Source: Paraspadella gotoi
Taxonomy: Eukaryota > Animalia > Chaetognatha
Direction of reading: 5' to 3'
DNA: 63,976 nt
NCBI GenBank assembly: GCA_051294375.1
Contig: CM119264.1
Span: forward strand, 3,604,689 to 3,668,664
Below, piece by piece: positions 22,463 through 63,976 of the stretch. Both the position numbers and the translations under genes were made by a program. Each line of letters opens with the position of its first letter. Position 1 is the first letter of the stretch. The notes under the pieces are model-generated. The model was given only the letters and a program-made list of their open reading frames with translations. It ran no database searches and was not told the origin of the DNA.

Positions 22463-22826
22463 TATTAAGTACAGTAAGTGCTATAGCCTCAGCTAAAACT
22501 TTCTATCTCCATGAAGCCCGTGATCATAACGAATTGATGTATTTTGTAGTAAGATGGTGTGTGTGATGTTAAGATCCTTCAAAGGCAAATAGTAAGTTCA
22601 TGTCAAATAATCATAATTCATTGCAAGTAATAACATACTAAGTAGGCTCCATCCGGGGAGTGTAGAAAAACCGATGTTCATTTGTCGTTCATCTCTCGTC
22701 AGCGGGCGATCCCTGGCGTTCACTTAGACTGTACTAAACTTTTCTACTCCGTAGTTACGTATTCAACAAATGATCAGTGTTTATACGTCGACGCCAAGTA
22801 TCGCACGCGTACGATCTCTCTTAACA
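22463..22826 (-). repeat. 3' LTR of copy A (364 bp, TGTTAAG...CTTAATA), preceded by purine tract ggtgggag
   Basis: Homologous to 36256-36613 (+) and ~61840-62259 (-), with homology ending at the same boundaries. Confidence 0.85.
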
Positions 22827-22999
22827 CTCCCACCTGTACGTGTAAACGGACAATACAACACTAGAGAGATCGTGCGCACCGCTGTACTTCGCCCTGTGGC
22901 AGTAGACTTTGTTACTGCAAACTGGATTCTATCCCCCTCTCTTGAAGAGTCACCGGCCCCTCTTGACGGTCCCATTGAGGTATCCGCTCCGATGTAAGA

Positions 23000-23191
23000 T
23001 CAGCAACAACCCTCTCCCACCAGTGGCGTCCTGAAAGGCGCCGCCCCTTTGGAACAGCATGGCGTCACCCGGCGTTTCACGGCATCACCTCCGGCCGACT
23101 TCAAGGCATCGTTGTCCTGCGACGCACCGTTGACCGTCTTGTCGATGACCATGATAGCCGCCGCCGGCGTCGCCTCCTCAAGTTTTTTCAT
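23000..23191 (-). CDS. Accessory ORF G (63 aa) upstream of the 3' LTR
   Basis: Intact, with a near-identical copy at 62441-62632 (one aa change). Confidence 0.45.
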   Translation of the reverse strand: MKKLEEATPAAAIMVIDKTVNGASQDNDALKSAGGDAVKRRVTPCCSKGAAPFRTPLVGEGCC

Positions 23192-23260: not shown

Positions 23261-23341
23261 TTTTATGTTTTTCCGTCGTGTTTTCTTTTCGTTGTTTAAT
23301 TAATTTTAATTAAGTTTGTTCATTACTCGTTCGTTTAAATA

Positions 23342-24120
23342 CATCACGCATAAAACGGGGTATATTTTTTCGCAATCGAGTAAACAAAAAGATTTCGGAA
23401 TCTTCTTTACCGTTTTTTTAAATTTCAGATTTTTTTTTAAATTTCTTTTTCCTTAATTTTTTTTCTAACTTTTTTCTCAATTTTTTTTCCAACAATTAAT
23501 TCCTAATTACTATTGCATAAAAAGATTTTTATTACAAAATATCGAGATTGGTTTATTTTATTAGACATTGCATTCTAAATTCAAATCATTTCTATGGTAA
23601 GAAAGAGTTAGTAAGAATGAGGAGGATGAGGAGGATGAAGCAGATGAGTAGGATGAAAATCAGGGAGAGAGAGTGAGAGAGAGACAATGAGAGAGAGAGA
23701 GAGAGAGAAAAGAAGAAAGACTCTCAAAAAATTTCTTCAAAGCAAATGTCTTGATATGGTATAGTTGCCGCTGTAAAACCATTGTCAGCAGAATATTGGA
23801 GTCCGTTATCAATAGAATCTAAAATTTATGATAAAAAGACAGATTTTATCGAAAAGGAAAGTAAAAACAACTAAATACGTTCTCAAGGATTTTCAAAAAG
23901 ACTGTTCTCATTTCGTGCGGGCCATACCGTGAGACATATCCATAAATTTCAGTAACCAGTTGAAAGGTCTTTTTATCCTCTTGAATTCTCCGTATGCGAA
24001 CAAAAAAAAAATTTTAGGGAAAATTAATAAAACGAAGAAAAGATGACTGAAATCTCGAATTCCAACGCGGTAAACGTTAAAACTATTCCTTTTCGGTTTT
24101 ACCCCGTTTTATGCGTGATG
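23342..24120. mobile_element. MITE-like non-autonomous DNA element (~780 bp) inserted in copy A
   Basis: Perfect 21-bp terminal inverted repeats catcacgcataaaacggggta / taccccgttttatgcgtgatg. The segment is absent from the homologous copy at ~62960-62980. Confidence 0.8.
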
Positions 24121-24383
24121 AATTATTCGTGCTCAATTTCCCAAAAAAAATTTTCTTTTTTCCAGTGACTCATTCTTTAATTATTTTTCCCTTCATTATC
24201 GTCGTTGGTCATGGTACCGGGCAAATTAAATACATTAACAATAAATAAAGGAACATGCCTCCAGGCCATACGACACGCCGGCGTGGGTTTGACGGTCGGC
24301 TCTGGAGGTGCCGTCCCGAGCAAATCAACTCCATCGGCGCCGACAGTCAAATTCGAGTTTAAATTGAATCTTTACGGCGGCGT

Positions 24384-26174: not shown

Positions 26175-26477
26175 TCAAAGCAATTCAACTCTTTTCTTTG
26201 TCAGCATCGAAAAAATCTTTCCTTCCCCTTCCAGGACGTCAGCCAATCTGCTCAGGTGCTCGATCCTCCACTGGTACTCTTTTATTTCCTCGTCGAGCTG
26301 GAGACCCATGGCAACATACTTGTAACTCCATGATTCGAGGTCCTCTTTATTCGTTTCCCGTTTCTGCAACGCGTCCTCAAGGTTGTCCGGCGATCCTTCG
26401 GCAACTTTGACTCTTTCCTGGATTCGAAACGACTCTGGACTTTTTACTTCTTGTGTGTTGAGTTCGAACTTACTCAT
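26175..26477 (-). CDS. Accessory ORF D (100 aa, helical/coiled coil)
   Basis: Intact ORF; frameshifted homologue at 52824-~53115. Confidence 0.6.
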   Translation of the reverse strand: MSKFELNTQEVKSPESFRIQERVKVAEGSPDNLEDALQKRETNKEDLESWSYKYVAMGLQLDEEIKEYQWRIEHLSRLADVLEGEGKIFSMLTKKRVELL

Positions 26478-26556
26478 TTTTAATTTGAGTAACAATTTTT
26501 GCTGAATTAAAACTCAATAGCAAAAAAAAACACAACGGGCAAATATACAATACACC

Positions 26557-36255: not shown

Positions 36256-36613
36256 AGTTAAGAGAGATCGTGACGCCGCGCGATACTTGGCGTCGACGCA
36301 TAAACACTGATCATTTGTTGAATACGTAACTACGAACTAAAAAAAGTTCAGATACGTCTAAGTGAATGCCAGGGATCGCCCGCTGACGAGAAATGAACGA
36401 CAAATGAACATCGGTTTTCTATCACTCCCCGGATGGAGCCTACTTAGTATGTTATTACTTGCAATGAACAATTATTATTTGACATGAACTTACTATTTGC
36501 CTTGAAGGTTCTACTTCACTTCACACTACATATACATCAATTCGTTAATGAACACGGGCTTCATGGAGATAGAAAGTTTTAGCTGAGGCTTATAGCACTT
36601 ACTGTACTTAATA
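36256..36613 (+). repeat. 5' LTR of copy B (~358 bp)
   Basis: Reverse-complement homology to 22463-22826; lies ~810 bp upstream of gag. Confidence 0.8.
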
Positions 36614-37427
36614 TTAAGAACTAAACTGTCTCCTACGGGATTCTATCTAAACTAACTAATTAAAATTAAAATAGCCGAAGCAGCCTGGGACTTGGAGGAC
36701 TTTTGGCTTCCCGAGTTTTTGGGTCCTAAATAAAATCATAACCTTGATCACGTTCTAATTGTGAACAGTTTTGAGGAATTCGGAAAGAAAGTGGGAGCCA
36801 TCGATAAGGGCACCACGGGAGCCGATCTTTTTTTTTTAAAAAACGATTGGGCCGGATCTTTTGTGATCGGGCCCGGTAAGAACGGGCTGGAGCCGAAGCC
36901 GTCGCAAAGTGAGTTTGTGAAAAAAAAAATGCCAGTCGCTGCTCAAGATGGCGACGGATTGAAACTTTGGCCATAAACCCAGCGATTTTTTAATAACATT
37001 AATAATCAAAATGAGAGAGGAGTTAGACGGTTCGCAAAGAATTACAATACGAACTAAACAAATTTGAAAAATTGTACAATAATGCCAAAGTTTCGTCGAG
37101 GTCCAGGCGACCCGACAGGCCGAAGGGGTCCGGGTGACTGTCCGGAGACTGTTCACTGATCTTGCACAATTTTGTTGTCCGCACACATCCTGCACTTGAA
37201 ACCGATCGCGTAAAGTTATTATTAGATGAGGGTCTTGTAAATTCGGTACCGGGCGTATTAAGGGCTTGGTCCCGTTAGTTGTATTTGACGAGGAGTATGA
37301 GGCGTCTGTAGATGAAGGTGTTGAGGAATCTGATGAGAAAATGAAAGCATTGAGGGTACTGTCATTTTGCCGTCCGGTCCGGTTGTTCCCCAAACTATCC
37401 CACCTGTCGATCTTAGAACCCCTCGTC

Positions 37428-39747
37428 ATGAATCGCCGAACGTCAACGTCGAGAGTCGCGTCGAGCATTGGGTTGCAACTTCGGCCGACAGTCTGTACGT
37501 CGCCTAAGATCTACTACGGGCGTCTCCGCGTGTCTAGAGCCATCGAACGTCAGTGTCCGATCGTCCAGGAAGGAGGGCACGTCGGTAACAAAGTCCTCTC
37601 GATCGTCCAAAGAGACGATCAGACAAAGGTTGGTCCTCGATCTAGAGAGAGTTGACGAAGAGCGTTTAGCGATTGAAAAGGCGAGAGAGAAAGATAAAGT
37701 AGAAAAGGAGATTAGAAGATTAAAAGACGAGGCTAAGTTAAGAGAGATGGAAGAAAGTAAGAAAGAAATCGATTACGAATTCAGATTGAAAGCGATTGAA
37801 AGAAATAGAAAAGTGACTAACGAGAGAATCCACAACATTAGTAGAGGTAGTTCAGAAGAGGACCTGTATTCATGCAGATCGGGAGGAGCTCGCTCGGTAA
37901 CGTCGCGCCGAAGTCTCGTGAACGAACGTCGCGTCGACACACGCCCACGCGCCGATCAACACGTCGAAGAACGCCCGCTCGCCGAACGCCACGACGCAGA
38001 ACGCCCTTCCGCCGTCCAACTCGTCAAGGAATCTCCGCCGGATCTCACGGTGCCAAATCCCATCGTCTCTACGGTGAGGGGAGGAAAGGAAAGGGAGGCA
38101 GGACTTAATGAGGACGAATTGTTATTACAACTTGTGAGAAACTTACCTGAGGAAAAGAGGAAGAGTCTTGTTGCTGTATTGCAGTTGCCGCCGCCGGCCG
38201 GCCCGCGTAACATTGCGCCGCAAATCACCGCTTGTCCACCGATTGTTACCACGCCGTCCGTACCGCCACCCGTTCCGATCGCGCCGCCGCCGCGGATAGT
38301 ACCGCCGCCGCCGCCCGTAACATTTTCACCGCCGGTCCCGTTGCCACCGTTGCCGCCGCCTATTTTCATTCCGCCGGTTATACCGCCGCCGCCGATAGTA
38401 ACGCTCGGTTGTTCGTCGCCGTTTTTGTCGATGACGCCGGTGGAGAAATTGACGCCGCCGCCGACGGTTCCGTCGATAATTCAAGCGTCCGTTGCCGAAG
38501 GTGTGTCGAAGCCTGCTGAATGTCCCAGTTGTTATTGTCGAAGTTCGCCGCGCCCGTCGACGCCGTCCGTCGCCGATCTTTCTGTTGAGAATCTAGACGG
38601 GGGAGGGAGGAAAGAAGAGAAAGGAGAAAATATCAAATTAAATCACACACGTGAAGAAGCTCTTACCAACTATGCATTCTGCAAACACAACAACAAGCAC
38701 TGAGCATCATCAGACAAAAGAGGCCTAAATTAAAATTTAGCGGAAAGGATCGTCGAGTCGACTTTGAGTCACAGCTGAATTTATTTGAGTCACTCAGCAA
38801 AGTTGTGGGAGTAACCGACGAGATGTTGATGTCGGAATTAAAGGAGTACTTCGACGGGGATGCAGGGATCATAGTTTCACAACATGAGGCATCGGAAACC
38901 ACACTGAGGCTTTAAAGGAAGCAAAGAGAGGCGTTAGAGATTGAGTTCGGACGAAAAAATTTTACCGCGCAGCAGATGTTAGAGGAACTTCTGAAAGGGC
39001 CGAAGATAACTGAGAGGGATTTCACGGGGGCACGAACGTTTATATTAGAGATGGAAAGGTTTTGAAGAAGAGACAGTTGAGACAAATCGCAGCGTACGTT
39101 TTTCGACACAGTGACAACGTAGCATTGAGATATATGATCAAAAATTCGCATAGATAGCTAATCCGGTTGCCAAGAGAATGACAAGACATGAGTTAGCGAT
39201 TCTGAAAGGGGATGATAGGAAGAGAGGCGATCTCGAATTGAAATTTGAAGAGTTTCTAGAAATAATAAAGGAGGTGACGAGGTCGAAGGAGACGATGGGG
39301 ATCCTCATGAAACAAGGGTCATCGGTGGGAGAAAAAGTGGGTGGGTCAAATTATAGCAGCGCGAGGACGTCCGGGGATGTCAATAGGAACCACATTTCCG
39401 TTCGCGCCGCCACAACCACCCGCACTTCAAAGGCAATCGTCGCCGCCAACCGAAGTTTTTCGAATCCAAACTCAGACCCTACAAATCATGCACCCAGAGG
39501 ACCCAGAAATTCAAAATGTGATTTTTGTGAAAAGATTCACTTCACGGGGGTATGCTCAAAATTTCTCGAGTTGAACGTCGACGAGAGATTGAACTGGATG
39601 AAGGAAAAGGGTTTATGCAGACTTTGTTTCGGACGTGGCCATCTGGCAAGAGCTTGCTCGAACCTCATGGGATGTCAGACATGTGGACAGAGGCATCATG
39701 CTTCTCTCCATAGAGAAGACGCTGATCAGGACCAGAGTTCGTCCTGA
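37428..39747 (+). CDS. gag: Bel/Pao gag, copy B (Ser/Arg-rich N-terminus, coiled coil, Pro-rich segment, three Zn knuckles); frameshifts around 38650-39180
   Basis: ORFs 37468-38703 and 39178-39747; 38930-39020 matches the copy A fragment 33823-33909. Confidence 0.8.
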
Positions 39748-41947
39748 CTGGCTGCAGCATACGTGACGACGGGAGCGTTCCGGCCGATCGTCCCAGTTGT
39801 TGTTAGAAACGGAGAAAAATCGGTCGTCACGTATGCATTATTAGATAGCGGCGCTACTCGATCGGCGATGTCGATGAAATTAGCTAGTGAATTAGACGTC
39901 GCTACTTATGCTGAATTTACTAATTTGACTACTTATGATAAAGTCTCTAGAGCTTGGAGGGATTATGGAGATGTTGAAGTATCGAATTTAGATAATACGT
40001 TTTCCACGGAGATGAGGAAAGTGATGGTCGGAGAAGTCCTCACGACGGAGGCGGACAGACCGACAAGGAATGAAGAGATCGAAGATTATCATTACATGGA
40101 AGGAGTAGAATTTGCTGAATTGGAGGACGACTCGGTGGAGATGATTCTTGATGCGAGACTGGCACATGCATGGGTCGGAGGTGAAGTGAAGAAAGGTCCA
40201 GAAGGTTATCCGGTCGCGTTGAAGACGTTGTTCGGGTGGACGTTAGTAGGGGCAAGTGAAAATGAGAGTGGAGATCACATTAGCTGCTGCTCAACGCCGA
40301 ACGAGCACGAGAAATTGGAGTACATGATCGCGTCGATGTTCCGACATGACTTTATAATGAGAGGGACCGAGAAATATCCATCGGAGGTGCAACATCCGTC
40401 AGCGGAAGATTGCTACGCATTGGAGCAGTTGGAGAAAGAAATTTACTTTAACGAAAAGACTGGGCACTATGTTGCGCCGTCGCCGTGGAAGAAAGGGAGG
40501 GAAGAGACCGCTAAGTTTTTCGAAACGGTCAAGGATGACGTAATAAAGAATGCGGAGAGCAGAGCAAGAAAATTGGCGAACAAGATGCGGAAAGATCCGG
40601 CGCTGAAGGAAGGGGTGTTCAAGACGATGAAGGAGACGATCGAATCGGGCCACGCTAGAAAAGCTGTAGTTGACCATCCGCCGCCGGGTAATCCAGAATG
40701 TTTCGCGCCATTACTCGTAGTTACGAGACCAGACAAGCCGGGGAAGTTCAGAATTTGCCAAGACGCAGCATCCAAAGTGAACGGGAACGCACTAAACGAC
40801 CATCTGATTGGGGGGCCGGACAACTTAACTCCGCTGATCGGCATGCTGTTGAAGTTCCGACGAAAGAGATACACGATTTCTGCTGACATAAAAGGCTTTT
40901 TCCATCAAGTAGAGTTGCACCCGAAAGACGTAGCTGCATTTAGATACCATTGGTATACGGACGAGTCAATGAAGACGTTGGAGGTCCACGAGCCACTGGT
41001 CCATGTGTTCGGAGGAGCCGGAAGCCCAGGAGTTGCTACATTTGTGCTGCAGTACCATGGGAAAAGGTTGAGCTTCACTGGAGAATTTTCGCCTGAGGTC
41101 ATAATCGCATTTTTCATTAAAGTATATGTTGACGATTATCTTGACGCATTGGATGGAATCAAAGACGCCCGAAAGATGAGGCTGGACATGACGGAAGCCA
41201 TGAGAAGAGGGGGATTCGAGTTGACCAAGTGGCAGGCATCTCACCCACGAATACTGATAGACGAAGCCGGAGAAGATGAAGATGACAAAGAGTTGGAAAA
41301 GGAAAATGTTGACGAAGGTCTGGAAGAAGAATTGGAAGATAATCTTGAAGGGTTAGCCGGAAATGCATTGCCCGAAGATCCAACGATGGAGGAACATGAT
41401 TCAAAAGTCTTGGGGACAGGCTATAATTCGAAACGAGATGTGTTTTTCGTCCGCGTAACAGAAAAATCGAAGAAGGAAGCAAAAACGAGGAGAGACGTTT
41501 TGAAGTTGGTCGCGTCAGTTTTTGACCCGCTGGGGTTGGTGGCGCCGTTTGTACTGAAGGGACGGAGCATCTTTCAAAGGGTGGTGATGGAAGGAATAGA
41601 CTGGGACGAAAAGTTGTCCGACGAGCTGTTTGAGGCGTTTGACAAATGGAGGAAAAAGATGCACTTCTTAAAGAAAATTAGAATCCCGCGATGGACGAGT
41701 ATTGTCGGGTTAGATTGCGTGAAGACGACGTTGATTGTGTTCTGTGATGCAAGTTGTGAAGGCTACGGGGTGGCGATATACATAAAGAAAGAAAACAAAG
41801 GAAGTGAAAAGAGTCATGTGACGCTTCTTTTCGCGAAAGCTCATGTTGTTCCGGTCAAGATGCAAGAGAAGATTATCATTGAAGACCAGTTGGATCACGG
41901 AGATTCGATGCCGAGGTTAGAGTTGAATGCGGCAAGATTGGCGGCGC
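39748..41947 (+). CDS. pol: Bel/Pao pol (protease, RT, start of RNase H), copy B, truncated by gap
   Basis: Same motifs as copy A; in frame with gag across a single TGA. Confidence 0.95.
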
Positions 41948-44717: not shown

Positions 44718-45728
44718 GTCAAAAGAATTTGAAAGTCCCAACGCCGCAGAAGATGGCAGAGCATCCCGAGTTTCGCGTGAATGAAGCAATTCCGTTCGAA
44801 GTCACAGGTCTTGATTGTTTCGGGCCATTCCAGGTGAAACACGCCGGGCGGGGACTAAATAAAAAGAACGTCGTCATATTCACATGTCTAACAACCCGTG
44901 CAGTAACATTCGAAATATTGAGAGATATGACAGCTCAATCGATGCTCAGTGCTTTAATAAGATTCAAAAATGTTTATCCAGGAGTACGGACACTTGTATC
45001 GGACAACGGCACCAACCTCGTGGGCGCCAACAACGAGATCGAGAGGCAACTTCATCAACTTCAAAAGGACGACAAAGTCAACGAAGGAATCGCCGCAAAG
45101 GGCATCACCTGGATATTCGGACCACCAAATGCTCCACATTGCGGAGGTGCGTGGGAGAGGTTGATCAGAGAAACGAAGAAGCACCTCAACGCCGTCATGC
45201 CCGCTGAATTAGACGTCGACACATTCTCGACAATACTAAGTGAAGTAGCAGGTATATTATATATCGCCGACCATGTGACGTTTGAAATCATCTGATCCTA
45301 TTAAAAAGGTGAAGGTGGCAACTGTCACAATCGAAGCTTTTTATTACCCGCATACTTATTTACATCTACTTCAATTAGACATATTTACCGATAACGCCAG
45401 GGCTGCGGAGATACATATCGAAAATGGCGGCTGTGGAGACAAGTGAGCGACGTTAGCCGACGCATTCTGGACAAAGATGGCATTCTGAATACTTGATCTC
45501 TTTAACAGCGAGAGGACAAAATGGCGAAAGTCGGCGGAAAACCTGAAGGACGGCCAAGTTGTCATGCTCGTCGAACCGAACGCTCCTCGAGATCAATGGA
45601 AGACGGGCCGCGTCGTCGAGATAAAAGGAGACGGCCCTTTGAAGAGAGAAGCAGTCGTCCGGCTCGCCGACGGAAGAACTTTTCGACGCCATCATAACGC
45701 ATTGGTTCAACTGGAGTTGGAGCAGTGA
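44718..45728 (+). CDS. Integrase core and C-terminus, copy B (frameshifted after ~45260)
   Basis: PFEVTGLDCFGP, SDNGTNLVGA, PHCGGAWERLIR (DDE core). Confidence 0.9.
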
Positions 45729-45761: not shown

Positions 45762-48700
45762 TTTTCCTGTATCAAGTTCGTAACGGTATACTTTAAAGCC
45801 TTTGGCCAAGATCCATCTGGTTAAATGAAATATTAACTTTAAACTCAATTGAGAACGAATTTGCTCTTTTTAATGGATTTATTTGAATTTTTTAATTCAA
45901 CATTTCGTGCAAAGTTTTCAAAGTCTTTCTCTGCTTCGTCAATCCTCCTTTTATTTCTCTCTCTTATCATTTCAAGATCTCTTCCTTTCTGGGTGCTGCT
46001 TTTCGCGGCTTTTGGTGATGTCTTCCTTTATCTGGTGCAGCTCTCTGATTTTTTTCTCCATGTCGGAAGCAGCTTTTTCCGGTTTCTCTTTTTTCTCCCT
46101 GTCTTTCTCTGCTTTCTTTTCTTTCAGCTTTAACTCCCTTTCGCAAAGAACGAGATCGTATACTTTTCTTTTCTTTTCTCCTTCTTTCTCCCCCGCTATT
46201 GTCTCCCATCTTCTTTCGGATTTTCCTTCCATTCTTCTCAGAAGTTTTTTGCCAATTATAACTGAATACATGAACATAATAAACTATAATACTTTTTTAA
46301 TATGTCTATTAACAGTTAACGTTTCGAGCTAGCATTCTTTCTCCTTTCAACTAGTCTCTTGGTTTCTATCCTGATCTTTTCGCGTTCCTCGTCGTTACCG
46401 GATCTACTTTATCAGTTTCTTTGTTGGCTGGTTCCGCGATTTTCTTCGGTATCGTTTCGTTTTCTGCTGTTGTTAACGTTGTTGTAATTGCTGCTGCTGC
46501 TGTAGTTGCTTCTGCTGTTGTAGCTATGCTGCTGTGGTCGCTGCTGCTGCTGTAGCTGCTTCTGCTTTGTAGCTGCTTCTGCTGTTTTGTGCTTCAAATT
46601 CGGATTTTCTTTGTTTCTTTTTTGCAATGAGTTTTCTTGGTCTCGTCGTCATATTCCTCCTCTGGATTCTGTAGATCTTTTTGTATACCGTTTCGTCATC
46701 GTCTTCTGGCATTGGCGAGGGATGTAGATGCCTTTTAATTCTTTCGTCAACTCCGACATCATCTTTCTTCTCCTTCTTACTGAGTCTAGATACAAAGTTC
46801 ATCTCGATGGCTGGAGCATATTCCCATGATTGGATTGGCGTCGACCTCCTCCCACAATCCTTCATCAATTGTCCATTGATGATCTTAGTTGTTTTTCAAA
46901 ACAACTCTTCACAAATTGTTCGATATTCATTGTCCTGTTTTCCTCTAATGTCGAAAATGGATTTCGTATTAATGTTATCTACTTTATTGTTCATTTGTTT
47001 CTACTCAATTTTTTGTTTCTCATTTCTTTAAACTATTTTATTTTGAAACGAGTTTATTTTTTTTTTACAGTTTTTTCTTTCTGACGGCGTTCTCACATCG
47101 CTCCAACTCCAGTTGACACCATGCTGTTATTGATGCGTCGAAAAGTTCTTCCGTCGGCGAGCCGAGCGACTGCTTCTCTTCTTCAAAGGGCCGTCTCCTT
47201 TATTCTCGACGACGCGCGCCCGTCCTTCCCATTGTCTCGGGCGCTGTTCGGTTCGACAGCATGACACTTGGCCGTCCTTCAGGTTTTCCCGCCGACTTTC
47301 GCATTTTGTCCTCTCCTGTAAAGAGATCAAGTATTCAGAGTATGCCATCTTTTCCAGAATGCGTCGGCTACGTCTCTCACTTGTCTCCAAGCCGCCTTCA
47401 TACAGTCACCCTCTGCAAGCTGCTATATGTAATAATGTTAATGAAGTAGATGTGAATAAGTATGGGTATAAAAAAGTTTCGATGGTGACGTTGCCACTTA
47501 CACTTTTAGGTCAGATGATTCAAACGTCAATGGTCGCGGGTTTAATATACCTGCTACTTCCTTAGTATTGTCGAGAATGTGTCGACTCTAATTCAGGTGG
47601 CATGACGGCTTGAGGTGCTTCTTCGTTTCTCTGATCAACCTCTCCCACGCACCTCCGCAATGTGGAGCATTTGGGTGGTACCGAATATCCAGGTGATGCC
47701 CTTGCGGCGATTCCTTCGTTGACTTTGTCGCCTTTTGAAGTTGATGAAGTTGCCTCTCGATCTCGTTGTTTGGCGCCCCACGAGGTTGGTGCCTGTCTCG
47801 ATACAAGTGTCCGTACTCTCGGATAAACATTTTTGAATCTTATTAAAAAGCTGAGCATCGATTGAGCAGTCATATCTCTCAATATTTCGAATGTTACTGC
47901 AGCGGAGACATAGTGAATATGACGACGTTCTTTTTTTTAGTCCCCGCCGCGCGTTTTCACACTGGAATGGCCCGAAAACAATCAAGACCTGTGACTTCGA
48001 ATGGATTGCTTCTATTCACCGGAAACTCGGATGCTCGGCCATTCTTCTCGGCGCGTTGGGACTTTCAAATTCTTTTGACACTTCAAGCACCGCGGCGGAG
48101 ATCTCTACGGCTGGTCTTCCTCCCAATAAGGTGAATCTCTGTCTGAGCGAATGGATGATAGCGCGATGCGCAGCCGATGGGATTAAGTTAGTGTCATGTC
48201 GAAATTAGTGACTCTACACATTTCGTCGATCTCTTTTGGCAATATATATTGGGTGTTTGTGTGGATTTATGGTGGCGCTTTTCGAATTTCCCAGCCTCCA
48301 CCAGTTCTCATGAGCCCTTCCTCATCTCATAAAAGGACCTTAACGCGACAATTCTCGAGTTTCTATGTGTCTCACTCTCTGTGATAGATTCGGCGTCATC
48401 ACCCCAGTTTCACAACTCAAAGAGATCCTTTTCGAAATCTTTTCTGGTGAGTATATTTTACTTTTTTTTTAACTCGTGTTCCGTTTTCATAAGCTTTCCA
48501 CTTCGAATTACTTTCTCTTTCCTCTCTTCTCTTTCGATTCTCTCTCATTACCTCTTCTCTGCATAATTAGCTTTTGTAATAATTCCTTCTCATCTTTTTT
48601 CGCCCAACTCCACGTTCTCAAGTAATTTTATATCACCCAGCTTTTTCCTCACCCATCCTGCTTTGATGTATCACGGCCACGCTTTGAAGCAATACGAATC

Positions 48701-48850: not shown

Positions 48851-50914
48851 GCCTATCTGTGTTGCCTATCTGTTTATTTGTGTGCAAGCGGGCGTGTCTT
48901 ATGATACTAGCGCGCTGTGCAGCCTNNNNNNNNNNNNNNNNNNNNNNNNNGGAAATGGAAAGAAGGGCACGAATTATGGAAAAAGGGTAATTACCAAGAG
49001 TCCATCAATCTCACACGAAAATTAATACTCCCTGAAGTTGAAATAGACGAAGCAGAGAAACGACATGCAGAACTCGAAGAAGAGGAGACAGAACCAGAAA
49101 AAGCCTTAGAAATAGCTAAAGAAAAGAAGGAAAGCCTGAAACGAAGAAAACTGGAAGGGATGGAGATTTACGAGACTGAAAAAAAGTATGTAAATTCGTG
49201 GATTTATACTGAAATCTTAACTCAAACAGAAATAGAAAAAACCGAGATAGATCGAAAGATTGAAANNNNNNNNNNNNNNNNNNNNNNNNNNNNNNNNNNN
49301 NNNNNNNNNNNNNNNNNNNNNNNNNNNNNNNNNNNNNNNNNNNNNNNNNNNNNNNNNNNNNNNNNTGAGCATAACTCGGAGACACTGTCGCGTTTAAGAT
49401 TCCATTTATTAGCTAGATGAGGAAGGGGCTCATTGAGAACTGGTGTGCTGGAGGCTGACGGTACAACCTTCCGAGACACAAGGGCACGATACATTACACA
49501 ACACAAAACACCAAGTCAATATTGTGCCCCACAATTAGATGACGATAAGTCAGGGTAGATCACTCAATTCGAAATCCAGAACAACATTAATCTATACCAT
49601 TCTAGTTCGCGCTATGCGCTACATTTCCATTCGCTCGACAGAGAGATTCACCTTGTTGGGAGGAAGACCAGCCTGTAAGGAGAAGACGTTCGCGCTCGGT
49701 AGCTCTGAAGTGTCAAAAGAATTTTGAAAGTCCAACGACCTGCAGCAAAAGATGGCGATGCATCCGAGTTTCGCGGAACGAAGCATTCCGTTTCGAAGTC
49801 ACAGGTCTTGATTGGTTTCGGGCATTTCCAAGGTGAAACTCGCCAGGGCGGGGACTAATCAAAAGAACGTTCGTCAATATTCACATGTCTACAACTCGTG
49901 CAGTAAACATTCTGAAAATATTGAGAGATTGACGGAGTCATAATCGATGCTCAGTGCTTTACATACAGATTTAAAAATGTTTGTCCAGGAGTACGGCACT
50001 TTGTATCGGACAACGGCACCACCTCGTGGGCGCCAAACAACGAGATCGAGAAGGAACTTCCACCAATTCAACAAGGCAGCGAACTAAAGTTCAACGAAGG
50101 AATCGCGCGCCAAAGGCATTACCTGGATATTGCCGGACCAGCCAAATGCTCCCAGCATGCGGATGGTGCGTGGCGAGAAGGTTGACAGAGAAACGAGAAG
50201 CACCTCACGCCGTCATGCACCGCGAATTAGACGTCGACACATTCTCCAGAAATACTAAGGGAACGTCAGCAGGTATTAATCTTGTCCACCGACCATTGAA
50301 CGTTTGAAATCATTGACCCTAAAAGTGAAATTGCACTGATCTCAACCATTCGAACATTTTTATACCAACTTATTCACATCTACTTCATTAAATTACCTAC
50401 CATAGCAGTGCAGAGGGTGGACTGATGAAGGCGGGCTTTGGAGACAAGTGAGAGACGGTAGCCGACGCGTTCTGGAAAGAATGGCAACCCTGAATATTTG
50501 AATCTCTTTACAGGAACGGACAAGATGGCGGAAAGTCGGCGAAAACCTGAAAGACGGCCAAGTTGTCATGCTCGTCGAACCGAACGCTCCTCAGAGAATC
50601 AATGGAAGACGGGCCGCGTCGTGCTGAGATAGAAAGGAGACGGCCCTTTGAAGAGAGAAGCCAGTCGCCGGTTCGCCGGGAAAGAATTTTCGACGACCAT
50701 TCATAAACGCACCTGGTTCAACCTGGAGTTGTGAGCAGGTGAGAACCGTCGTCAGAGAAAGAAACTGTAAATAAAAAAAATGAAAAAACTCGTTCAAATA
50801 AATAGTTTAAAGATATGAGAAACAAAAAAAAATTTGAGTAGAAACGAATGAACAATAAAGTCAGATTAACATTAATACGAAAACCATTTTCGAAAATTAG
50901 AGAAAAACAGAGAA

Positions 50915-51538
50915 ATGAATATTGAACAATTCGTTGATGAAGAGTTGTTATTGAAAGACCAACTAAGATCATCAATGGACAAAATGATGGGAGTGTTGTG
51001 GGAGGAGGTCGACGCCATCCAATCATGGGAATATGCTCCAGCCATCGAGATGAACTTTGTACTAGACTCAGTAAGAAGGAGAAGAAAGATGATGTCGGAG
51101 TTGACGAAAGAATTAAAAGGCATCTACATCCCTCCGCCAATGCCAGAAGACGATGACGAAACGGTATACAAAAAGATCTACAGAATCCCAGAGGAGGAAT
51201 ATGACGACGAGACCAAGAAACTCATTGCAAAAAGAAAACAAAGAAAATCCGAATTTGAAGCACAAACAGCAGAAGCAGCTACAATAGCAGAAGCAGCTAC
51301 AGCAGCAGCAGCGACCACAGCAGCATCAGCTACAACAGCAGAAGCAACTACAGCAGCAGCAGCAATTACAACAACGTTAACAACAGCAGAAAACGAAACG
51401 ATACCGAAGAAAATCGCGGAACCAGCCAACAAAGAAACTGATAAAGTAGATCCCGGTAACGACGAGGAACGCGAAAAGATCAGGATGAGAAACAAGAGAC
51501 TAGTTGAAAGGAGAAAGAATGCTAGCTCGAAACGTTAA
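50915..51538 (+). CDS. Accessory ORF A (>=207 aa; acidic, Ala/Thr repeat tract, basic C-terminus); true start may be ~50780
   Basis: Intact ORF directly downstream of the integrase stop; homologues in two other copies. Confidence 0.65.
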   Translation: MNIEQFVDEELLLKDQLRSSMDKMMGVLWEEVDAIQSWEYAPAIEMNFVLDSVRRRRKMMSELTKELKGIYIPPPMPEDDDETVYKKIYRIPEEEYDDETKKLIAKRKQRKSEFEAQTAEAATIAEAATAAAATTAASATTAEATTAAAAITTTLTTAENETIPKKIAEPANKETDKVDPGNDEEREKIRMRNKRLVERRKNASSKR

Positions 51539-51597
51539 CTGTTAATAGACATATAAAAAAGTATTATAGTTTATTATGTTCATGTATTCAGTTAATA

Positions 51598-51957
51598 ATG
51601 GCAAAAAACTTCGATGAAGAATGGAAGGAAATCGAAAGAAGATGGGAGACAATAGCGGGGGAGAAAGAAGGAGAAAAGAAAAGAAAAGTATACGATCTCG
51701 TTCTTTGCGAAAGGGAGTTAAAGCTGAAAGAAAAGAAAGCAGAGAAAGACAGGGAGAAAAAAGAGAAACCGGAAAAAGCTGCTTCCGACATGGAGAAAAA
51801 AATCAGAGAGCTGCACCAGATAAAGGAAGACATCACCAAAGCCGAAAAGCAGCACCCAGAAAGGAAAGAGATCTTTGAAATGATAAGAGAGAGAAATAAA
51901 AGGAGGATTGACGAAGCAGAGAAAGACTTGAAAACTTTGCACGAAATGTTGAATTAA
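51598..51957 (+). CDS. Accessory ORF B (119 aa, E/K-rich coiled coil)
   Basis: Intact ORF with ATG 6 nt after a tattcag acceptor; homologues in two other copies. Confidence 0.65.
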   Translation: MAKNFDEEWKEIERRWETIAGEKEGEKKRKVYDLVLCERELKLKEKKAEKDREKKEKPEKAASDMEKKIRELHQIKEDITKAEKQHPERKEIFEMIRERNKRRIDEAEKDLKTLHEMLN

Positions 51958-52029
51958 AAATTCAAATAAATCCATTAAAAAGAGACAAATTCGTTCAATT
52001 GAGTTTAAAGTTAATATTTCATTAACCAG

Positions 52030-53455
52030 ATGGATCTGGCCAAAGGCTTTAAAGATAAAACGTACGAACTTGACAGGAAATGGAAAGAAGGGCACGAATT
52101 ATGGAAAAAGGGTATTACCAAGAGTCCATCAATCTCACACGAAAATTAATACTCCCTGAAGTTGAAATAGACGAAGCAGAGAAACGACATGCAGAAACCA
52201 AGAAGAGGAGACAGAACCAGAAAAAGCCTTAGAAAAGCTAAAGAAAGAAGGAAAGCCTGAAACGAAGAAAACTGGAAGGGATGGAGATTTACGAGACTGA
52301 AAAAAAGTATGTAAATTCGTGGATCTTATACTGAAATCTTAACTCAAACAGAAAAGAAAAAAGAGATGATAAAGATTGAAAATCTGAGAGAAAGGTAAGA
52401 CTATCTTCTGAGAAAGAGAGGTGAAACTTTCGTTATTGTTTGTTTAGTGAATTGAAAAGTTTAGAGAAGAAAACACGAAATGGTGTTTGAGGCAGACTGC
52501 ACTCCACAGACAGTTGAAGACGCCATGAGAATGAAAAACTCGTACGAAAACTTCATTAAAAAACAAATCGAAAAAATACAATCACGAGAGAAAAAAATAA
52601 AAGTTAGAAGCCGATGCATAAACGAACAAAGAAACTACTATGAACGCTGGATAAAAGTTAGATATGCGCAAGAACGCATCTTTTCTCAATTTCAAAAAGC
52701 GATGAGAAACCACACACAAAGAAAAAAAATACAAATAAGGCGGAATGAATTAATTATTGTATTATATTTTCCCTTGTTTTTTTTATTAGTATTGATTCAG
52801 AAAAATTGTCTACTCAAATTAAAATGAGCAAGTCCGAACTTTCCGTCAAGAAGTAAAAAGTCCAGAGTCTTCCGAATCCAGGAAAGAGCAAAGTTCCGAA
52901 GGGTCGCCAGACAACCTCGAGACGCGTTGGAGAAAAGAGGAGGCAACAAAGAGGATCTCGAATCATGGAGTTTCAAGTATGTTGCCATGGGTTTCAGCTA
53001 GACGAGGAAATTAAAGAGACCAGTGGAGATCGAGCACCTGAGCAGACTAGCTGACGTCCTGGAAGGGAAGGAAAGATTTCTCGACGCTGACAAAAAATGT
53101 TGAAATGCACTTAAATAAAAATTTAGAATGTTCGATCGAATGTTAATTATTTAAACATATTTCAAGTTGTTGTTTAAACTTCCAGTTAAAATGGACGTTT
53201 GCCAGATAGCAGTACAGTTCGGGCGCTTCGGTATCCTCGTCAAAGAAGTCGCGACGAAACTCGGTGGATTCAAACCGGCCGAGCATCCAGATGAACGACG
53301 AGTTACGAAGATGCAAAGGCAAGAGAAAAAATAAAAACGATAAGTTCGAAAAAACTTTTCTTAGAAATATAGAGGGCGAGCAGCAAACAAAAGACCGCAG
53401 AAAAATCCGAACAAAATTGATCTTGAGAATTCGAGTAAAAAGACTAGATATATAA
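52030..53455 (+). pseudogene. Accessory ORFs C (52030-~52753), D (52824-~53115) and E (53191-~53455), copy B, with indels
   Basis: Colinear homology with the copy A ORFs. Confidence 0.6.
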
Positions 53456-53771
53456 CTATATATAGCTAAATAAACAATTCATTTGACTAGATAACTAATT
53501 AAATTATAAAAATTTACTAAGCCGTACCAGCTATCCACGTCGACGCGTTCCAGATAAAAGAAATCCGGGAAGGAAAACCAGATTCGAGTTTGAAAAGTTA
53601 AAGATTTGACTTAATTTGATGCATTAATATTTCTCACTGTACTTGCATGAATGAAAAAAGAAATTCGAAATAGCTAACACAAATTAAATATTCGATTGTA
53701 TTGTTATTACAGGAAAAATAGCTGATAAAATATCATCAAACATTCAATAAACATTCAAAATAAATCCAAAG

Positions 53772-54980
53772 ATGGAATCCCATTCCGATATTAACTTAGA
53801 TTCTGTGATGTGGACACCTTCAATACAGGAAAGGGAGGAGCTCTTCGGGATCTTTCCATTTGCTCGCGATCTCGAAGAATTCGGTACCACAAACGAAATC
53901 GAGACCATCTCCATTGCGACGTCGGCCTCTATTGAAGAAGTTGCGGCACCAACGAACAAGGAGCCAACGCCGGAAGACGATGAAGACTTTGCATCACGCT
54001 TCCTCAATAAAAAGGCGACGCTGCCACCGCACCGACGAGCTCTGATAGACTTTTCTGTAAAAATCATCATAGACAGCGGCGACGAGCCATATTTCAAGTA
54101 CGACTTCAAGGTCACGAAGGAGACAAAGGTGATGGTGAGGCGGATCAAAAGAACATGGAAGAAAGCCGCCAAGATTCGGGGGTGGACGGACGCCGAATTT
54201 GATGATTTGATTAAAGCGATCAACTTCGGGGTAAACCTAGAAACGTTGAGAATGATGTCCATTCTCATCCGATCAAGTCATCAAACTCAACCGCCATTGG
54301 AGTCCTTGTCGGAGGAAAGAACATCGACGCCGTCAACGAGCTCGGCGGCGACATCCACCCGTGTGGTAGTTTTTGACAAAACGGGCCCGGCCGTCGATTA
54401 CGCGACAGCGACCACCGGACACTCTGGAGCTGTCGAAACAAGATTATCAGCAGCTTCTCAAACAGATGTCGACGGCCGCCGCTGGACCCAACTCGAAGAG
54501 AGGAATCGCCGGCAGCATCAGGAGTTGCTGAGAGCAGAAGTGGAGAAGGCCGACCTCCGAGTCAAGATCGAGAGGCTCGAGCAAGACCTAAAGAAAGAAA
54601 CAGAACGCAGGATCCAGGCCGAGGTGAAATTGGAGGGGCGTGTACGAGAAGTAGAACAGCGCCGTGCGACCACAGAGCGGCTCTGGTCTCAGACATGTGG
54701 CCGCATGTACGAGAAGATTGAAGCAATGTCATCTTCTCACCCGCGACCGCCAACATCTCCAGAACAGAATCAATGGCCACAGTTGGATCTTCGCCTGGCA
54801 GCATTTCGACCGCCCATTGGAATGGAGCAATTTGTACGCTCACCACCGCAGTCCCGACCTAATCCTGCACCAAAGAGAAAAATCCCCACTTTACAGCCGG
54901 TGTCACCGCCGCCTCCTCCCCCTCCAAGAAAAAATTACCCGGACTGGGCCAAACGGGCGACGAAGAAAAGGTCGTCTTAA
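53772..54980 (+). CDS. Accessory ORF F (402 aa; coiled coil, poly-Pro, basic C-terminus; no signal peptide or TM)
   Basis: Long intact ORF; the protein is conserved with copy A while third codon positions differ. Confidence 0.85.
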   Translation: MESHSDINLDSVMWTPSIQEREELFGIFPFARDLEEFGTTNEIETISIATSASIEEVAAPTNKEPTPEDDEDFASRFLNKKATLPPHRRALIDFSVKIIIDSGDEPYFKYDFKVTKETKVMVRRIKRTWKKAAKIRGWTDAEFDDLIKAINFGVNLETLRMMSILIRSSHQTQPPLESLSEERTSTPSTSSAATSTRVVVFDKTGPAVDYATATTGHSGAVETRLSAASQTDVDGRRWTQLEERNRRQHQELLRAEVEKADLRVKIERLEQDLKKETERRIQAEVKLEGRVREVEQRRATTERLWSQTCGRMYEKIEAMSSSHPRPPTSPEQNQWPQLDLRLAAFRPPIGMEQFVRSPPQSRPNPAPKRKIPTLQPVSPPPPPPPRKNYPDWAKRATKKRSS

Positions 54981-57293
54981 ACTTTAAGCTTGAACTGTCG
55001 GCGCCGATGGAGTGATTGCCTGGGTCGACACCTCCAGAGCCGACCGCCAAACCCACGCCGGTGTGTCATATGGCCTGGAGGCATGTGCCTTTATTTATTG
55101 ATAATGTATTTAAATTGCCCGGTACAATGACCAACTACAATAATGACGGGAGAAATAATTAAAGAATGAATCACTGGAAAAAAGAAAANNNNNNNNNNNN
55201 NNNNNNNNNNNNNNNNNNNNNNNNNNNNNNNNNNNNNNNNNNNNNNNNNNNNNNNNNNNNNNNNNNNNNNNNNNNNNNNNNNNNNNNNTGTGACGAAAAA
55301 AAGGACGGAACATAAATGAAATAAGGGAAAGAGGAAAGGCACAAATCGCGGATGGAGGTAGAAACAAAGAGAGGAACAAAGGCGGAGGAAATAGAAAGGC
55401 AAGGCGAAAGCGATAATCGCGGGAATGAGGTGAAAAGGCAAGAGATGGAAAAAGGAGGGAAAAAATCGAGCACTGGAAAAGCAAAAGGAGGAAATCATAT
55501 CGGGAAAAAGAGGTGCAAGATAGATTAAAGGGAGGAACCGAGGAAGAAAAAAAGGAGACTCGAGGGAGAAATTTACAGACGTACTGAAGAAAAAGGAGAC
55601 GCTAGAAAAGAAGTTTTAAAAATTAAAAAATAAAGATAAATGACATAAATTATGAAAAAACTCGTAATTAAACTTAGCTAGCATAAGGAAAAAAAAAACT
55701 CCCGAGGAGGATTTGAAATGCGTCAAAGCATTGAGTGACGAAGAAAGGCAAAACGTCGAGGTCCGATGCCAATCCAGAAGTTCCGCAGGCCAGAGTCAGA
55801 ATGGGGGGGGAAGGACAGGAAGAGAGGCCTCGCGCGTGGGGCAAAAAGAGGGACCTGCGACGGCAGGAGGAAGCACTCGAGCAGGTGAGGGGCAAAAGAG
55901 ACAGGGGGCTGGGAGGTGGCAGTAGAGAGAGGCGGATGGGCAAAAGAGCGGGAGCTGGGGGGACTTGAAGGAGAGAGAGGGGTGGGCCAAGAAGAGGGGC
56001 TGGGGTTGGGGCAGGATATGGAGAGCGGCGATGAGCAGGTGGCAACCCTAATACGGAGCGGGAGCTGGGGGGATCGGGACAAGGAAGAAACCGTCTCACT
56101 TCTTTCGCCGGATTGCGAAGGCAGAAAGCCAGTCCGCCGGTCGAAGCTGATGACTTAACCGCATCAGAAGGGACACGGAATGCCGACAAAAAAAAAAGTA
56201 ACTTCGGCGAACAAAGAATACAAGAAAAGGAAAAGGAGGACTTGAAAAGAAAAAAAGACTTCGTGAAGAGAGAACAAGACAATAACGGAAGGCACAAAGG
56301 GGAACAAAAAGAAAGTTAGAAAAATGATATCTGTAAGCAAAGAAGGGAAGATCAGAAAAGAGAAGAGAAATCTCTTCTCTCTCATCTTCCTCCTCGCTCT
56401 CTCTCTCTCTCTCTCTCCTCTCTCTTACTCTCTCTCTCTCATCTCTCCGCTCTCTCATCCCTCTCCTCTCTCTCTACTTTCTACCATTGTCTCGTCTTCA
56501 ATTAGTTGCCTTAATTAATCCATTTCACTCGAACGAAAGGGCGAAACCGGAAGTGTCGATCACGAGAGGCGTGCCTCGCCGGGGGTCCGAAAGTGGGGGG
56601 GGGGCAGAGGAAATAAGCAAAAAAAGGGCAGGCCCGACACTGAAAAACGTCAAAACTAAATTAAGCGAAATTGGCACGCTTTTTTTTTTCTTTTTCGTGT
56701 GTGTGTGTGTCATTGGTTTGGCGAAAAAGAGAGAGAGATAGAGAGAGAAGAGATGCAGAGAAGAGAAGGATGAGAGAGCAGAGAAGACGAGAGAGAGAGA
56801 GAGAGAGGGCGGGATTTCTTAACGAAAGAGGAAAAAAATGAAAGGAGCCGTCGGCTCCAGCACAAAGTTGCAGGACAGAATTAATGGAATAGTTTTCGAA
56901 GTTTTGAGATGAAGGCTATGCACAATCACTACGACCTCTTCCATTATTAATAAATTCTTCCGTTCTTCTCGATTTCGAATTGAAGCGGTTGGAGAGGGCG
57001 TGGCAAGGGGGGGCGAAATAGACAAATTACAAAGAAACCAGACTCCACAAAAAAAAACAAAGAAAAACAACCGACACACACAGCGCAGAATCTACACACA
57101 CACAGACGCTCAGCGCGAACAAAAAAATTCAAATTTTAAAAAAAAAGTCTTACGAACAAAAGGCAGTCTTTCTCCTTCTTTCCAGGGCGGCAGCGGATGG
57201 CAAATATCTAGCATGGCTCGACGGAAACAAAGGCAATGAGGCATGACGGAGCACGCAAACACCCTCTACTCCTCTCCTCTCTCTCTCCTCTCT

Positions 57294-61839: not shown

Positions 61840-62650
61840 CATTAAGATACAGTGAAGTTGCTATTAGCCTCAAAGCTACAAACTTTCTATCTCACATGAA
61901 GCCCGTGATCATAACGAATTGATGTATTTTCTGTACCGTCCGACCTGTTTGTGTGAAGATGGAATGTTTTGTTACAGATCCTTCAAAGGCAAATAGTAAG
62001 TTCCATGTCAAATAATCATACAATTCCTGCAAGAATAACATACTAAGTAGGCTCCATCCGCGGGATGTGTAAGAAAAACCGATGTTCATCCTCTTCGTTT
62101 CATCTCTCGTTCACTCTCTCGTCAGCCGGGCGATCCCTGGCGTTCACTTAGACCTGTTACTGAGTTTCTACCTCCCCGTAACGCTTACGTCACTTCAACA
62201 AAAGATGCAGTGTTATACGTCGACGCCAAATATCGCGCGCGTGACGATCTCTCTTAACACTCCCCATCCATGCGTAATCGTGCAAACGGACCATACAATA
62301 CCTAGAGAGATCGTGCGCACCGCTGTACTTCGCCCTGTGGCAGTAGACTTTGTTACTGCAAACTGGATTCTATCCCCCTCTCTTGAAGAGTCACCGGCCC
62401 CTCTTGACGGTCCCATTGAGGTATCCGCTCCGATGTAAGATCAGCAACAACCCTCTCCCACCAGTGGCGTCCTGAAAGGCGCCGCCCCTTTGGAACAGCA
62501 TGGCGTCACCCGGCGTTGCACGGCATCACCTCCGGCCGACTTCAAGGCATCGTTGTCCTGCGACGCACCGTTGACCGTCTTGTCGATGACCATGATAGCC
62601 GCCGCCGGCGTCGCCTCCTCAAGTTTTTTCATTTCCCGGCTTGGCTCTCA
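61840..62650 (-). mobile_element. Copy C 3' end: LTR (~61840-62259), purine tract and ORF G (62441-62632)
   Basis: Direct homology to 22463-23210. Confidence 0.85.
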
Positions 62651-62679
62651 AAAAAAATAAAAAAGAATAAAAAAAAATC

Positions 62680-63976
62680 TTTAGACGCCGCGTAAAGACT
62701 TCAATTTAAACTCGAATTGACTTCGTTCGGCACCACGCTCCGTATGGAGTTGATCTTGCTGCGGCCGGACGGCACCTCCAGAGCGACCGCCCAAACCCAC
62801 GACCGGGACGTGGTGTCGTATGGCCTGGAGGCATGTTCCTTTATTTATTTGTTAATGTATTTATTTGCCCGGTACCATGGACAACGACGATAATGAAGGG
62901 AAAAAATAAAGGAATGGATAAGTCACTGGAAAAAAAAAAATTTTTTTTGGGGAAATTGAGGCACGGAAATTATTTAACGAACGAGTTAACGAACAACTTT
63001 AATTAAATTAATTAAACAACGAAAAGAAAACACGACGGGAAAAACATTAAAAAAAAATATTAAAAAAAAAAAAAAAAATTCCAAGTTATGTTAATCGAGA
63101 NNNNNNNNNNNNNNNNNNNNNNNNNNNNNNNNNNNNNNNNNNNNNNNNNNNNNNNNNNNNNNNNNNNNNNNNNNNNNNNNNNNNNNNNNNNNNNNNNNNN
63201 NNNNNNNNNNNNNNNNNNNNNNNNNNNNNNNNNNNNNNNNNNNNNNNNNNNNNNNNNNNNNNNNNNNNNNNNNNNNNNNNNNNNNNNNNNNNNNNNNNNN
63301 NNNNNNNNNNNNNNNNNNNNNNNNNNNNNNNNNNNNNNNNNNNNNNNNNNNNNNNNNNNNNNNNNNNNNNNNNNNNNNNNNNNNNNNNNNNNNNNNNNNN
63401 NNNNNNNNNNNNNNNNNNNNNNNNNNNNNNNNNNNNNNNNNNNNNNNNNNNNNNNNNNNNNNNNNNNNNNNNNNNNNNNNNNNNNNNNNNNNNNNNNNNN
63501 NNNNNNNNNNNNNNNNNNNNNNNNNNNNNNNNNNNNNNNNNNNNNNNNNNNNNNNNNNNNNNNNNNNNNNNNNNNNNNNNNNNNNNNNNNNNNNNNNNNN
63601 NNNNNNNNNNNNNNNNNNNNNNNNNNNNNNNNNNNNNNNNNNNNNNNNNNNNNNNNNNNNNNNNNNNNNNNNNNNNNNNNNNNNNNNNNNNNNNNNNNNN
63701 NNNNNNNNNNNNNNNNNNNNNNNNNNNNNNNNNNNNNNNNNNNNNNNNNNNNNNNNNNNNNNNNNNNNNNNNNNNNNNNNNNNNNNNNNNNNNNNNNNNN
63801 NNNNNNNNNNNNNNNNNNNNNNNNNNNNNNNNNNNNNNNNNNNNNNNNNNNNNNNNNNNNNNNNNNNNNNNNNNNNNNNNNNNNNCCAGAGACGCTCCGT
63901 TGTCGCACGACGCTGTTCCACTTCCTGGACTCGTCCCTCCAACCTGACTTCAGCCTGAATTCTGCGCTCCGTCTCT
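62680..63976. mobile_element. Further family fragments: F-G spacer on + strand (62680-63100) and ORF F on - strand (63886-63976)
   Basis: Homology to 23210-24390 (lacking the MITE) and to 24690-24780. Confidence 0.8.

Follow-up and report, generated by a model that had tools for sequence, protein, structure and literature searches.

Does a Bel/Pao retrotransposon carry a set of accessory genes of its own, and how could it express them? This question is raised by a 63,976-nt stretch of the genome of the chaetognath Paraspadella gotoi (contig CM119264.1, positions 3,604,689 to 3,668,664; hereafter, the window), in which one long terminal repeat (LTR) retrotransposon is present as several partial copies at 22.4-55.2 kb, with more at 61.8-64 kb. 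A reading made from the letters alone (the sequence-only reading) had proposed that an operon-like array of about seven non-env genes lies between the integrase and the 3′ LTR of this element. Our results reveal that a multi-gene accessory cassette in a Bel/Pao-type element is real and apparently new to the literature, although the number and sizes of its frames are not those first given.

The domains of pol identify the element as a Bel/Pao-type LTR retrotransposon, as had been proposed. Pfam searches recovered Peptidase_A17 (PF05380, E 7.8e-35) and reverse transcriptase (PF00078, with a YVDD motif), both scored on the pol of one copy (copy A), as well as integrase (PF00665). These matches, together with alignment to relatives, gave the order protease, reverse transcriptase, RNase H, integrase (PR-RT-RH-IN), with a Pao-type domain. 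Two copy types are distinguishable: copy A, which runs on the minus strand from 33.9 to 22.5 kb, and copy B, whose cassette lies at 50700..55187. The element region is a hybrid assembly of clean and indel-rich stretches, with N gaps and inverted duplicates.

Between the integrase and the 3′ LTR are six or seven extra non-env frames, A, B, C1, C2, D, E and F; a further frame, G, is doubtful. In copy B, on the plus strand, open reading frame (ORF) A (50915..51538, 207 aa) has a helical N-terminal part, an Ala/Thr repeat and a basic tail, and ORF B (51598..51957, 119 aa) is charged and helical. Frame C1 (52030..52424) has about 130 codons, and frame C2 (52448..52753) has 76 aa from its first ATG and 102 codons from the splice acceptor-like site at which it opens. 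ORF D (52824..53114) encodes 100 aa, ORF E (53191..53435) encodes a basic product of 80 aa, and ORF F (53772..54980, 402 aa) consists of an N-terminal domain, a Ser/Thr linker, a 94-residue helix and a proline-rich and basic tail. Counterparts on the minus strand of copy A are at 28354-27758 (A, frameshifted), 27288-26889 (C1), 26865-26557 (C2, open), 26477-26175 (D, open), 26085-25843 (E, open) and 25495-24384 (F, broken). As the sequence-only reading had noted, copies A and B are colinear across A-F, and the spacers are short and AT-rich: four are 59, 72, 79 and 89 nt, with 73-81% AT. The E-F spacer is 347 nt, and an AT-rich gap of 180 nt precedes A.

No copy in the window has every frame open. 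In copy B the open frames are A, B and F, and in copy A they are C2, D, E and G; A, B, C1 and F are frameshifted in copy A, and C1, C2, D and E in copy B, with C1 frameshifted in every window copy. The earlier description of copy A as having seven ORFs was therefore mistaken. The sizes given for A, B and F (in copy B) and for D, E and G (in copy A) stand, but the supposed 245-aa ORF C dissolves into two frames: C1 stops at a TGA (26891-26889), up to which copy A and a short-read contig agree, and C2 is in another frame. Flanking by integrase and 3′ LTR, also claimed, was found for copy A, which has the 3′ LTR, but copy B stops at an N gap (55189) and lacks it as assembled. ORF G (63 aa; 23000..23191, minus strand) is open in copy A and recurs at 62441-62632 (minus strand) as described, but its place in the cassette is doubtful. 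It lies about 1.2 kb from F, past a 787-bp insertion, and is without an acceptor (rank 77 of 429 scored sites); a single site distinguishes its two copies, and a net 70-nt deletion falls within it in one contig.

Short-read contigs agree with the open forms of B, E and F and with most of A and D. The contig over 53610-55058, which covers F, has one difference and no gaps; those over 51616-52109 and 50996-51642 have three differences and no gaps, and one difference and 36 gap letters, respectively; and those over 25554-26003 and 26304-26650 in copy A have one difference and no gaps. All four short-read runs examined, from three studies, cover the cassette, with their independence limited in that one is possibly the assembly source and two (X6 and X7) seem to belong to a single data set. 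A guess that X6 was an RNA run was dropped, since it behaves almost exactly like the DNA run X7, and it is of no use for expression.

Four ATG-initiated ORFs of at least 100 aa in 4.5 kb were reached in only 1 of 500 Markov simulations and are thus beyond chance; an ORF of 400 aa was reached in none of 500. We compared the copy types pairwise, excluding codons near gaps, for the ratio of nonsynonymous to synonymous divergence (dN/dS), a check that the sequence-only reading had called for. For F, dN/dS was 0.06 (343 of 403 codons, p 9e-72; shifted-frame controls, 1.95 and 3.40), a value that is approximate because dS, at about 1.9, is near saturation. The ratio was 0.13 for C2 (54 of 77 codons, p 0.002) and 0.20 for D (66 of 101 codons, p 1e-4; shifted-frame controls, 2.80 and 1.02), with pol, for scale, at 0.03. 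Thus, F, C2 and D are under purifying selection at the protein level, while A, B and E did not reach significance. In C2, all 4 changed codons between the acceptor and the first ATG were synonymous, while the other frames gave 1 of 3 and 0 of 3; since coding extends 5′ of its first ATG, C2 needs an upstream coding exon. In E, the first three changed codons were synonymous and the C-terminal half is variable.

We consider F, C2 and D well supported as genes, and A, B, C1 and E likely. One could argue that only F, C2 and D are genes, and that the others are chance frames or the decayed remains of cargo, or that the array is a product of mis-assembly, given the hybrid assembly with its many indels, N gaps and inverted duplicates and given that A, B, C1, E and G do not show significant selection. 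However, two separate tracts share the order integrase-A-B-C-D-E-F, with a third tract having integrase-A-B. Contigs span A-B-C1, C2-D and the stretch from E to the F acceptor, and the remaining frames have the same acceptor layout, their copies being too alike for a selection test. We regard this explanation as very improbable.

F stands apart from its surroundings in divergence. It is 24% diverged between copy types, whereas the spacers and the F 3′ flank are 2-10% diverged, and its synonymous sites have diverged far beyond its non-coding flanks (53772-54980 versus 25495-24384). Run X6 contains three distinct versions of one F stretch. Because F diverges beyond its flanks and exists in three versions, it has likely been exchanged between lineages.

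The gag-pol junction carries a signal that the earlier account of the element had overlooked. At 39745..39836 (plus strand), a UGA-CUG lies in frame between gag and protease, followed by a 14-bp stem that starts 12 nt after the U; the same junction in copy A has an in-frame UGA-CUA and a stem (32832-32741, minus strand). TGA-CT(G/A) is likewise in frame in L001, a metagenome contig whose pol is 36% identical to that of the element, and in this relative the UGA-CUR and stem are kept (1043-1134). In all three junctions the long stem begins 12 nt after the U (z -2.7, -2.3 and -3.2). Across the two lineages available, 6 of the 14 stem pairs are unchanged, 3 have changed on one side, 5 have changed on both sides, and none is broken. 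Database relatives at 37-43% identity start at or just past the junction point, as expected after a stop. We interpret the UGA-CUR and covarying stem as a likely readthrough signal that marks a Bel/Pao clade. Alphavirus-type readthrough uses a UGA-CUA context and a 3′ stem-loop (PMC3159437; here and below, statements on cited sources, apart from PMC8742986, refer to the parts of each text covered). The element resembles it in the UGA-CUR context, the 9-nt spacer and the long stem, but the signal here, known from its sequence, would join gag to pol in a retrotransposon (PMC3159437). The covered text of PMC5009743 contains nothing on Bel/Pao readthrough.

L001 is one of two stretches confirmed among 204 candidates in the metagenome scan; the other, L002, has only a 20-residue match and was not used. 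The silkworm element Kamikaze is also said to have a gag-pol stop. After pol (5450-5592), L001 resembles the cassette in having an acceptor-like TTCAG 5 nt before an ATG; the open frame that follows has a hydrophobic start and runs off the contig, and could be env or another accessory gene.

How might the cassette be expressed? Frames B, C1, D, E and F each have a pyrimidine tract and YAG 0-59 nt upstream of the ATG, and the C2 frame opens at one. On the plus strand of copy B, these acceptor-like sites are TATTCAG, 6 nt before the ATG of B (51567..51591); TAACCAG, abutting the ATG of C1 (52005..52029); TGTTTAG, at the start of the C2 frame (52423..52447); one or more sites before D (52765..52800); TTCCAG, 5 nt before the ATG of E (53161..53185); and TTACAG, 59 nt before the ATG of F (53688..53712). 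Both copy types retain these sites. Of the eight best-scoring AGs among 395 in copy B, six are found no more than 65 nt ahead of a start (p 4e-6); in copy A, three of the best eight among 429 precede a start (p 0.02). The C2 site ranks second in copy B and first in copy A. The cassette acceptors score 8.1-14.1, compared with 7.4-15.8 for ten host acceptor-like sites. Near the 5′ LTR are two donor-like sites (36873..36914, plus strand), ccg/GTAAGA (36876) and aaa/GTGAGT (36909), which lie 53 and 20 nt before the first post-LTR ATG, in a leader with an ATG-free stretch (36564-36928). They are the top 2 of 27 GT sites in the LTR and leader (scores 5.2 and 5.0; in gag-pol, the highest score among 291 GT sites is 5.2). 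Another donor-like site follows the integrase stop of copy B (50739); it was dropped because two of three other tracts lack it and the third has a different sequence there.

The reading that we favor, at about even chances, is that this is a complex-retrovirus-like Bel/Pao element in which splicing from a common leader makes subgenomic mRNAs for most frames. A single ATG-free leader from the 5′ LTR would be spliced onto the acceptor ahead of each frame. Gag, and Gag-Pol through readthrough, would be translated from unspliced RNA; B, C1, D, E and F would come from singly spliced RNAs; and C2 would be expressed only with a further coding exon. In the invertebrate element Tor3a, a donor near gag is spliced to an acceptor before the third gene (PMC4402516), and in Cer1 of C. 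elegans, the spliced non-env regulator CERV is required for export of genomic RNA (PMC10309623). The term operon-like, used in the sequence-only reading, fits the layout, but that reading overlooked the acceptors and leader donors, which point to splicing.

Several points count against common-leader splicing. The donors and acceptors are sequence motifs and their junctions are predicted. The acceptor score was devised after the sites had been seen, making it descriptive more than independent, and T-rich spacers in A-rich coding DNA favor it, the antisense strand scoring higher by composition alone. A has no strong acceptor (rank 38 of 395), leaving its expression route unexplained, and an ATG-free leader is unable to supply the start of C2. 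Two of the four short spacers contain AATAAA, which, if functional, would lead to cutting of the genomic RNA. The sequence around the leader is noisy, and in the assembly the leader is not contiguous with the cassette of its copy. Selection is not significant for A (dN/dS 0.65 versus copy A and 0.17 versus the 46-kb tract), B (0.44), E (0.51) or C1, in which synonymous changes are 1 of 3 at the start and 3 of 3 in the tail up to its own stop. L001, the sole relative with DNA, ends 140 nt past the pol stop.

The spacers could instead be ordinary introns, at least in several cases, with fewer genes than frames: three or four spliced proteins (for example, C1-C2-D) plus F. A 64-nt phase-0 intron fits C2 to D, possibly ending at the site or sites before D, C2 is coding directly from its acceptor, and there is a strong donor in the C1 tail. 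However, that donor is out of phase with C2, the C2-D donor is weak (0.7), and the changes in the C1 tail are all synonymous up to its own stop. No fitting donor was found for A-B, B-C1, D-E or E-F, such that C2-D is the only one of the five spacers tested to fit as an intron of one gene. We find this explanation improbable for the cassette, although intron joining can hold for C2 alongside common-leader splicing.

The same spacers can be viewed as those of a true operon, in which a polycistronic RNA would be cut by spliced-leader trans-splicing at each acceptor and 3′ ends would form in the spacers. In the 59-89 nt spacers, a stop is accompanied by AT-rich sequence and by an acceptor that lies 0-34 nt ahead of the ATG; AATAAA occurs in B-C1 and D-E, and TATAAA in A-B. 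At 1-8500 are five apparently co-oriented host genes; an acceptor-like AG lies 11-35 nt ahead of an ATG in three of them, and that of VPS25 is 8 nt after a possible upstream stop. Yet the strong upstream donors would favor cis-splicing, the coding sequence 5′ of the first C2 ATG requires a coding cis exon, and AATAAA is common in A-rich DNA, occurring also three times between integrase and A. The acceptors behind the putative host trans-splicing would be equally explained by introns in 5′ untranslated regions (UTRs). Rfam, consulted for a spliced-leader RNA within the window only, gave no match. We consider a true operon unlikely, if worth entertaining.

A more elaborate proposal is that an LTR retrotransposon runs a eukaryotic operon of six or seven new genes, which originated in part through tandem duplication and through copying of the Gag N terminus, are resolved by spliced-leader trans-splicing of the host and include an F exchanged in an arms-race-like manner, all within a marine Bel/Pao clade with UGA readthrough. 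Comparisons bearing on duplication gave weak leads. C2 and D match at p ~0.02 among 55 pairs of frames, which is not significant after correction. Residues 213-380 of F are 23% identical over 183 aa to the N-terminal region of gag (p ~0.01 by local shuffles, post hoc; E 0.045 with composition correction), which is a lead only. In the literature searched, mostly at the level of listings, we found no LTR element with a trans-spliced operon. We think this proposal rather unlikely.

Transcription of the frames could also begin, as that of env does in some Oikopleura Tor elements (PMC4402516), at one or several internal promoters, with short local introns in the 5′ UTRs. A, which has no acceptor and follows the 180-nt AT-rich gap, and F, with its 347-nt spacer, would suit such an arrangement. 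For the other frames, spacers of 59-89 nt leave little room for a promoter, and four acceptors have no local donor partners. We regard internal promoters as quite improbable.

Returning to the cassette products, no host or env homologue was found (by Pfam for all frames, and by protein searches for F and A); the sequence-only reading had named a match to a single captured host gene or to a known env as grounds for refutation. Nine cassette queries gave no Pfam family above the cut-off; B, C1, C2, D, E and G were searched against Pfam only. F has no relative among 1.84 billion representatives, nor among proteins of near length in a 5.8-billion set, and its residues 1-165 had no match in an atlas search. 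A had no relative among proteins of near length, and its atlas hits, all at 0.89-0.90, are at a level reachable by shuffled proteins. The viral contigs searched contained no relative. As had been noted, there is no membrane helix in the frames scored (seven, with C1 unscored), for which the highest 19-residue hydropathy is 1.14. The fold check that had been suggested gave, for F, no match in a viral fold search at E 0.001 and a model with a mean pLDDT (predicted local distance difference test) of 53.7, in which only the 94-residue helix is confident; the N-terminal domain modeled alone reached 39.2. We infer that the products may be soluble, charged, mostly helical intracellular regulators and not fusogens. 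By analogy, one product, basic E or F, could be a CERV/Rev-like factor, a suggestion that we make tentatively because an element with six acceptors must keep and export some unspliced RNA, as CERV does in Cer1. Such a factor (basic E, or F via its basic tail) would protect or export unspliced acceptor-rich genomic RNA, and F, B, C1, C2 and D might act as coiled-coil partners of Gag or of host defense proteins.

The remaining parts of the element are those of an LTR retrotransposon. The 5′ LTR (36257..36613, plus strand, ~357 bp) is a 90% match to 22826-22463 and also matches an LTR at 61841-62259; the 3′ LTR of copy A (22463..22826, minus strand) runs from TGTTAAG to CTTAATA. These LTRs of ~360 bp, found before gag and after the cassette on different copies, are within the 0.2-1.2 kb range of Belpaoviridae. 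They end in TG...TA instead of TG...CA, and no target-site duplication could be paired for them. Read depth over the LTR at 36257-36613 is several times the internal depth in the bins of three of the four runs, and highest in X1, which suggests solo LTRs. The polypurine tract, AGGTGGGAG (22827..22835, minus strand), precedes the 3′ LTR and is also present in a short-read loose end; a 64-aa frame (22781-22975, minus strand) crosses it into the LTR. None of the 7 TGG sites in the noisy leader was recognized as a primer-binding site for tRNA-Arg or tRNA-Gly. In gag (36929..39747, plus strand), a frameshifted 5′ part, a coiled coil and a proline-rich tract are followed by three Cys-His boxes, which are found at the gag end in both copies and in L001. 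The clean part of pol (39748..41947, plus strand) contains protease, reverse transcriptase (YVDD) and RNase H, and integrase pieces are at 44753-45295 and 49370-50738 (noisy) on the plus strand. Inverted duplicate element segments (45763-48155 and 62650-63100) are probably assembly or chimeric-read artifacts.

The 787-bp insertion in copy A (23338..24124, no strand assigned) is separate from the cassette. It is non-coding and high-copy, has 25-nt inverted ends resembling those of a miniature inverted-repeat transposable element, and its read depth is one to two orders above that of the element. GT-AG introns and the ESCRT-II (endosomal sorting complex required for transport II) gene VPS25 (~2830-3685) indicate animal-type DNA in the window. 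About five closely spaced, co-oriented host genes at 1-8500, including VPS25, may form a host operon. A long, nearly intronless host frame at 4030-6667 (711 aa from 4532) has a likely immunoglobulin-like start, one membrane helix near its end and no Pfam family.

An extra ORF is present in some of the Bel/Pao elements of C. elegans. In the texts covered, extra Bel/Pao genes are env-like (PMC13524379, PMC554778, PMC3118150), and Belpaoviridae are profiled as having one to three genes in 4.2-10 kb, with gag-pol continuous or overlapping (PMC8742986). The element has the LTRs, polypurine tract, Gag Cys-His boxes, PR-RT-RH-IN order and Pao peptidase/RNase H domain of this family, but differs in having at least 8 frames (gag and pol plus six or seven more), a length of ~13 kb estimated by summing parts of two copies, no env, and an in-frame gag-pol UGA in both copies and in L001 (PMC8742986).

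Other enlarged elements differ in class or in content. CERV of Cer1 is also a non-env orphan ORF that has pol on one side and the 3′ LTR on the other, but it is a single accessory gene of a Ty3/gypsy element to which we found no sequence link, and its spliced mRNA and its export of unspliced genomic RNA have only inferred counterparts here (PMC10309623). Burro/GYPSM1 of planarians is likewise an invertebrate LTR element enlarged by accessory ORFs, but is gypsy-type, exceeds 30 kb and has recognizable domains, with env homology within the polyprotein, in contrast to the small orphan frames 3′ of pol described here (PMC6431247). Terminons of bdelloid rotifers have many accessory ORFs, including coiled-coil proteins, but are Penelope-like, without LTRs, and carry enzymes in their cargo (PMC6431247). 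The sORF1 and sORF2 of the MDG1 group (PMC11952523) and Cer19-ORF2 (PMC7084138) are small or extra non-env genes of animal LTR elements, but number only one or two; sORF2 is a membrane protein made from unspliced RNA (PMC11952523), while the seven scored frames here lack a membrane helix. Plant LTR elements carry additional ORFs (aORFs; PMC7264820), and Tor env is expressed by splicing or from an internal promoter (PMC4402516). Complex retroviruses have a major donor before gag and several acceptors before the 3′ genes, for which the element has candidate motifs; they differ in env, as the seven scored frames have no transmembrane helix and no frame matches an env family. In the literature searched, mostly at the level of listings and outside subscription papers, Repbase and supplements, we found no multi-gene non-env cassette in a Bel/Pao element.

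If the accessory genes hold, retrovirus-like genome complexity arose in Bel/Pao elements too, without env infectivity. The cassette provides new orphan proteins that can be probed for roles in RNA export or counter-defense, and the conserved UGA readthrough signal would set apart a distinct Bel/Pao clade. The element would also be a test case for how a retroelement keeps its full-length RNA despite many splice acceptors.

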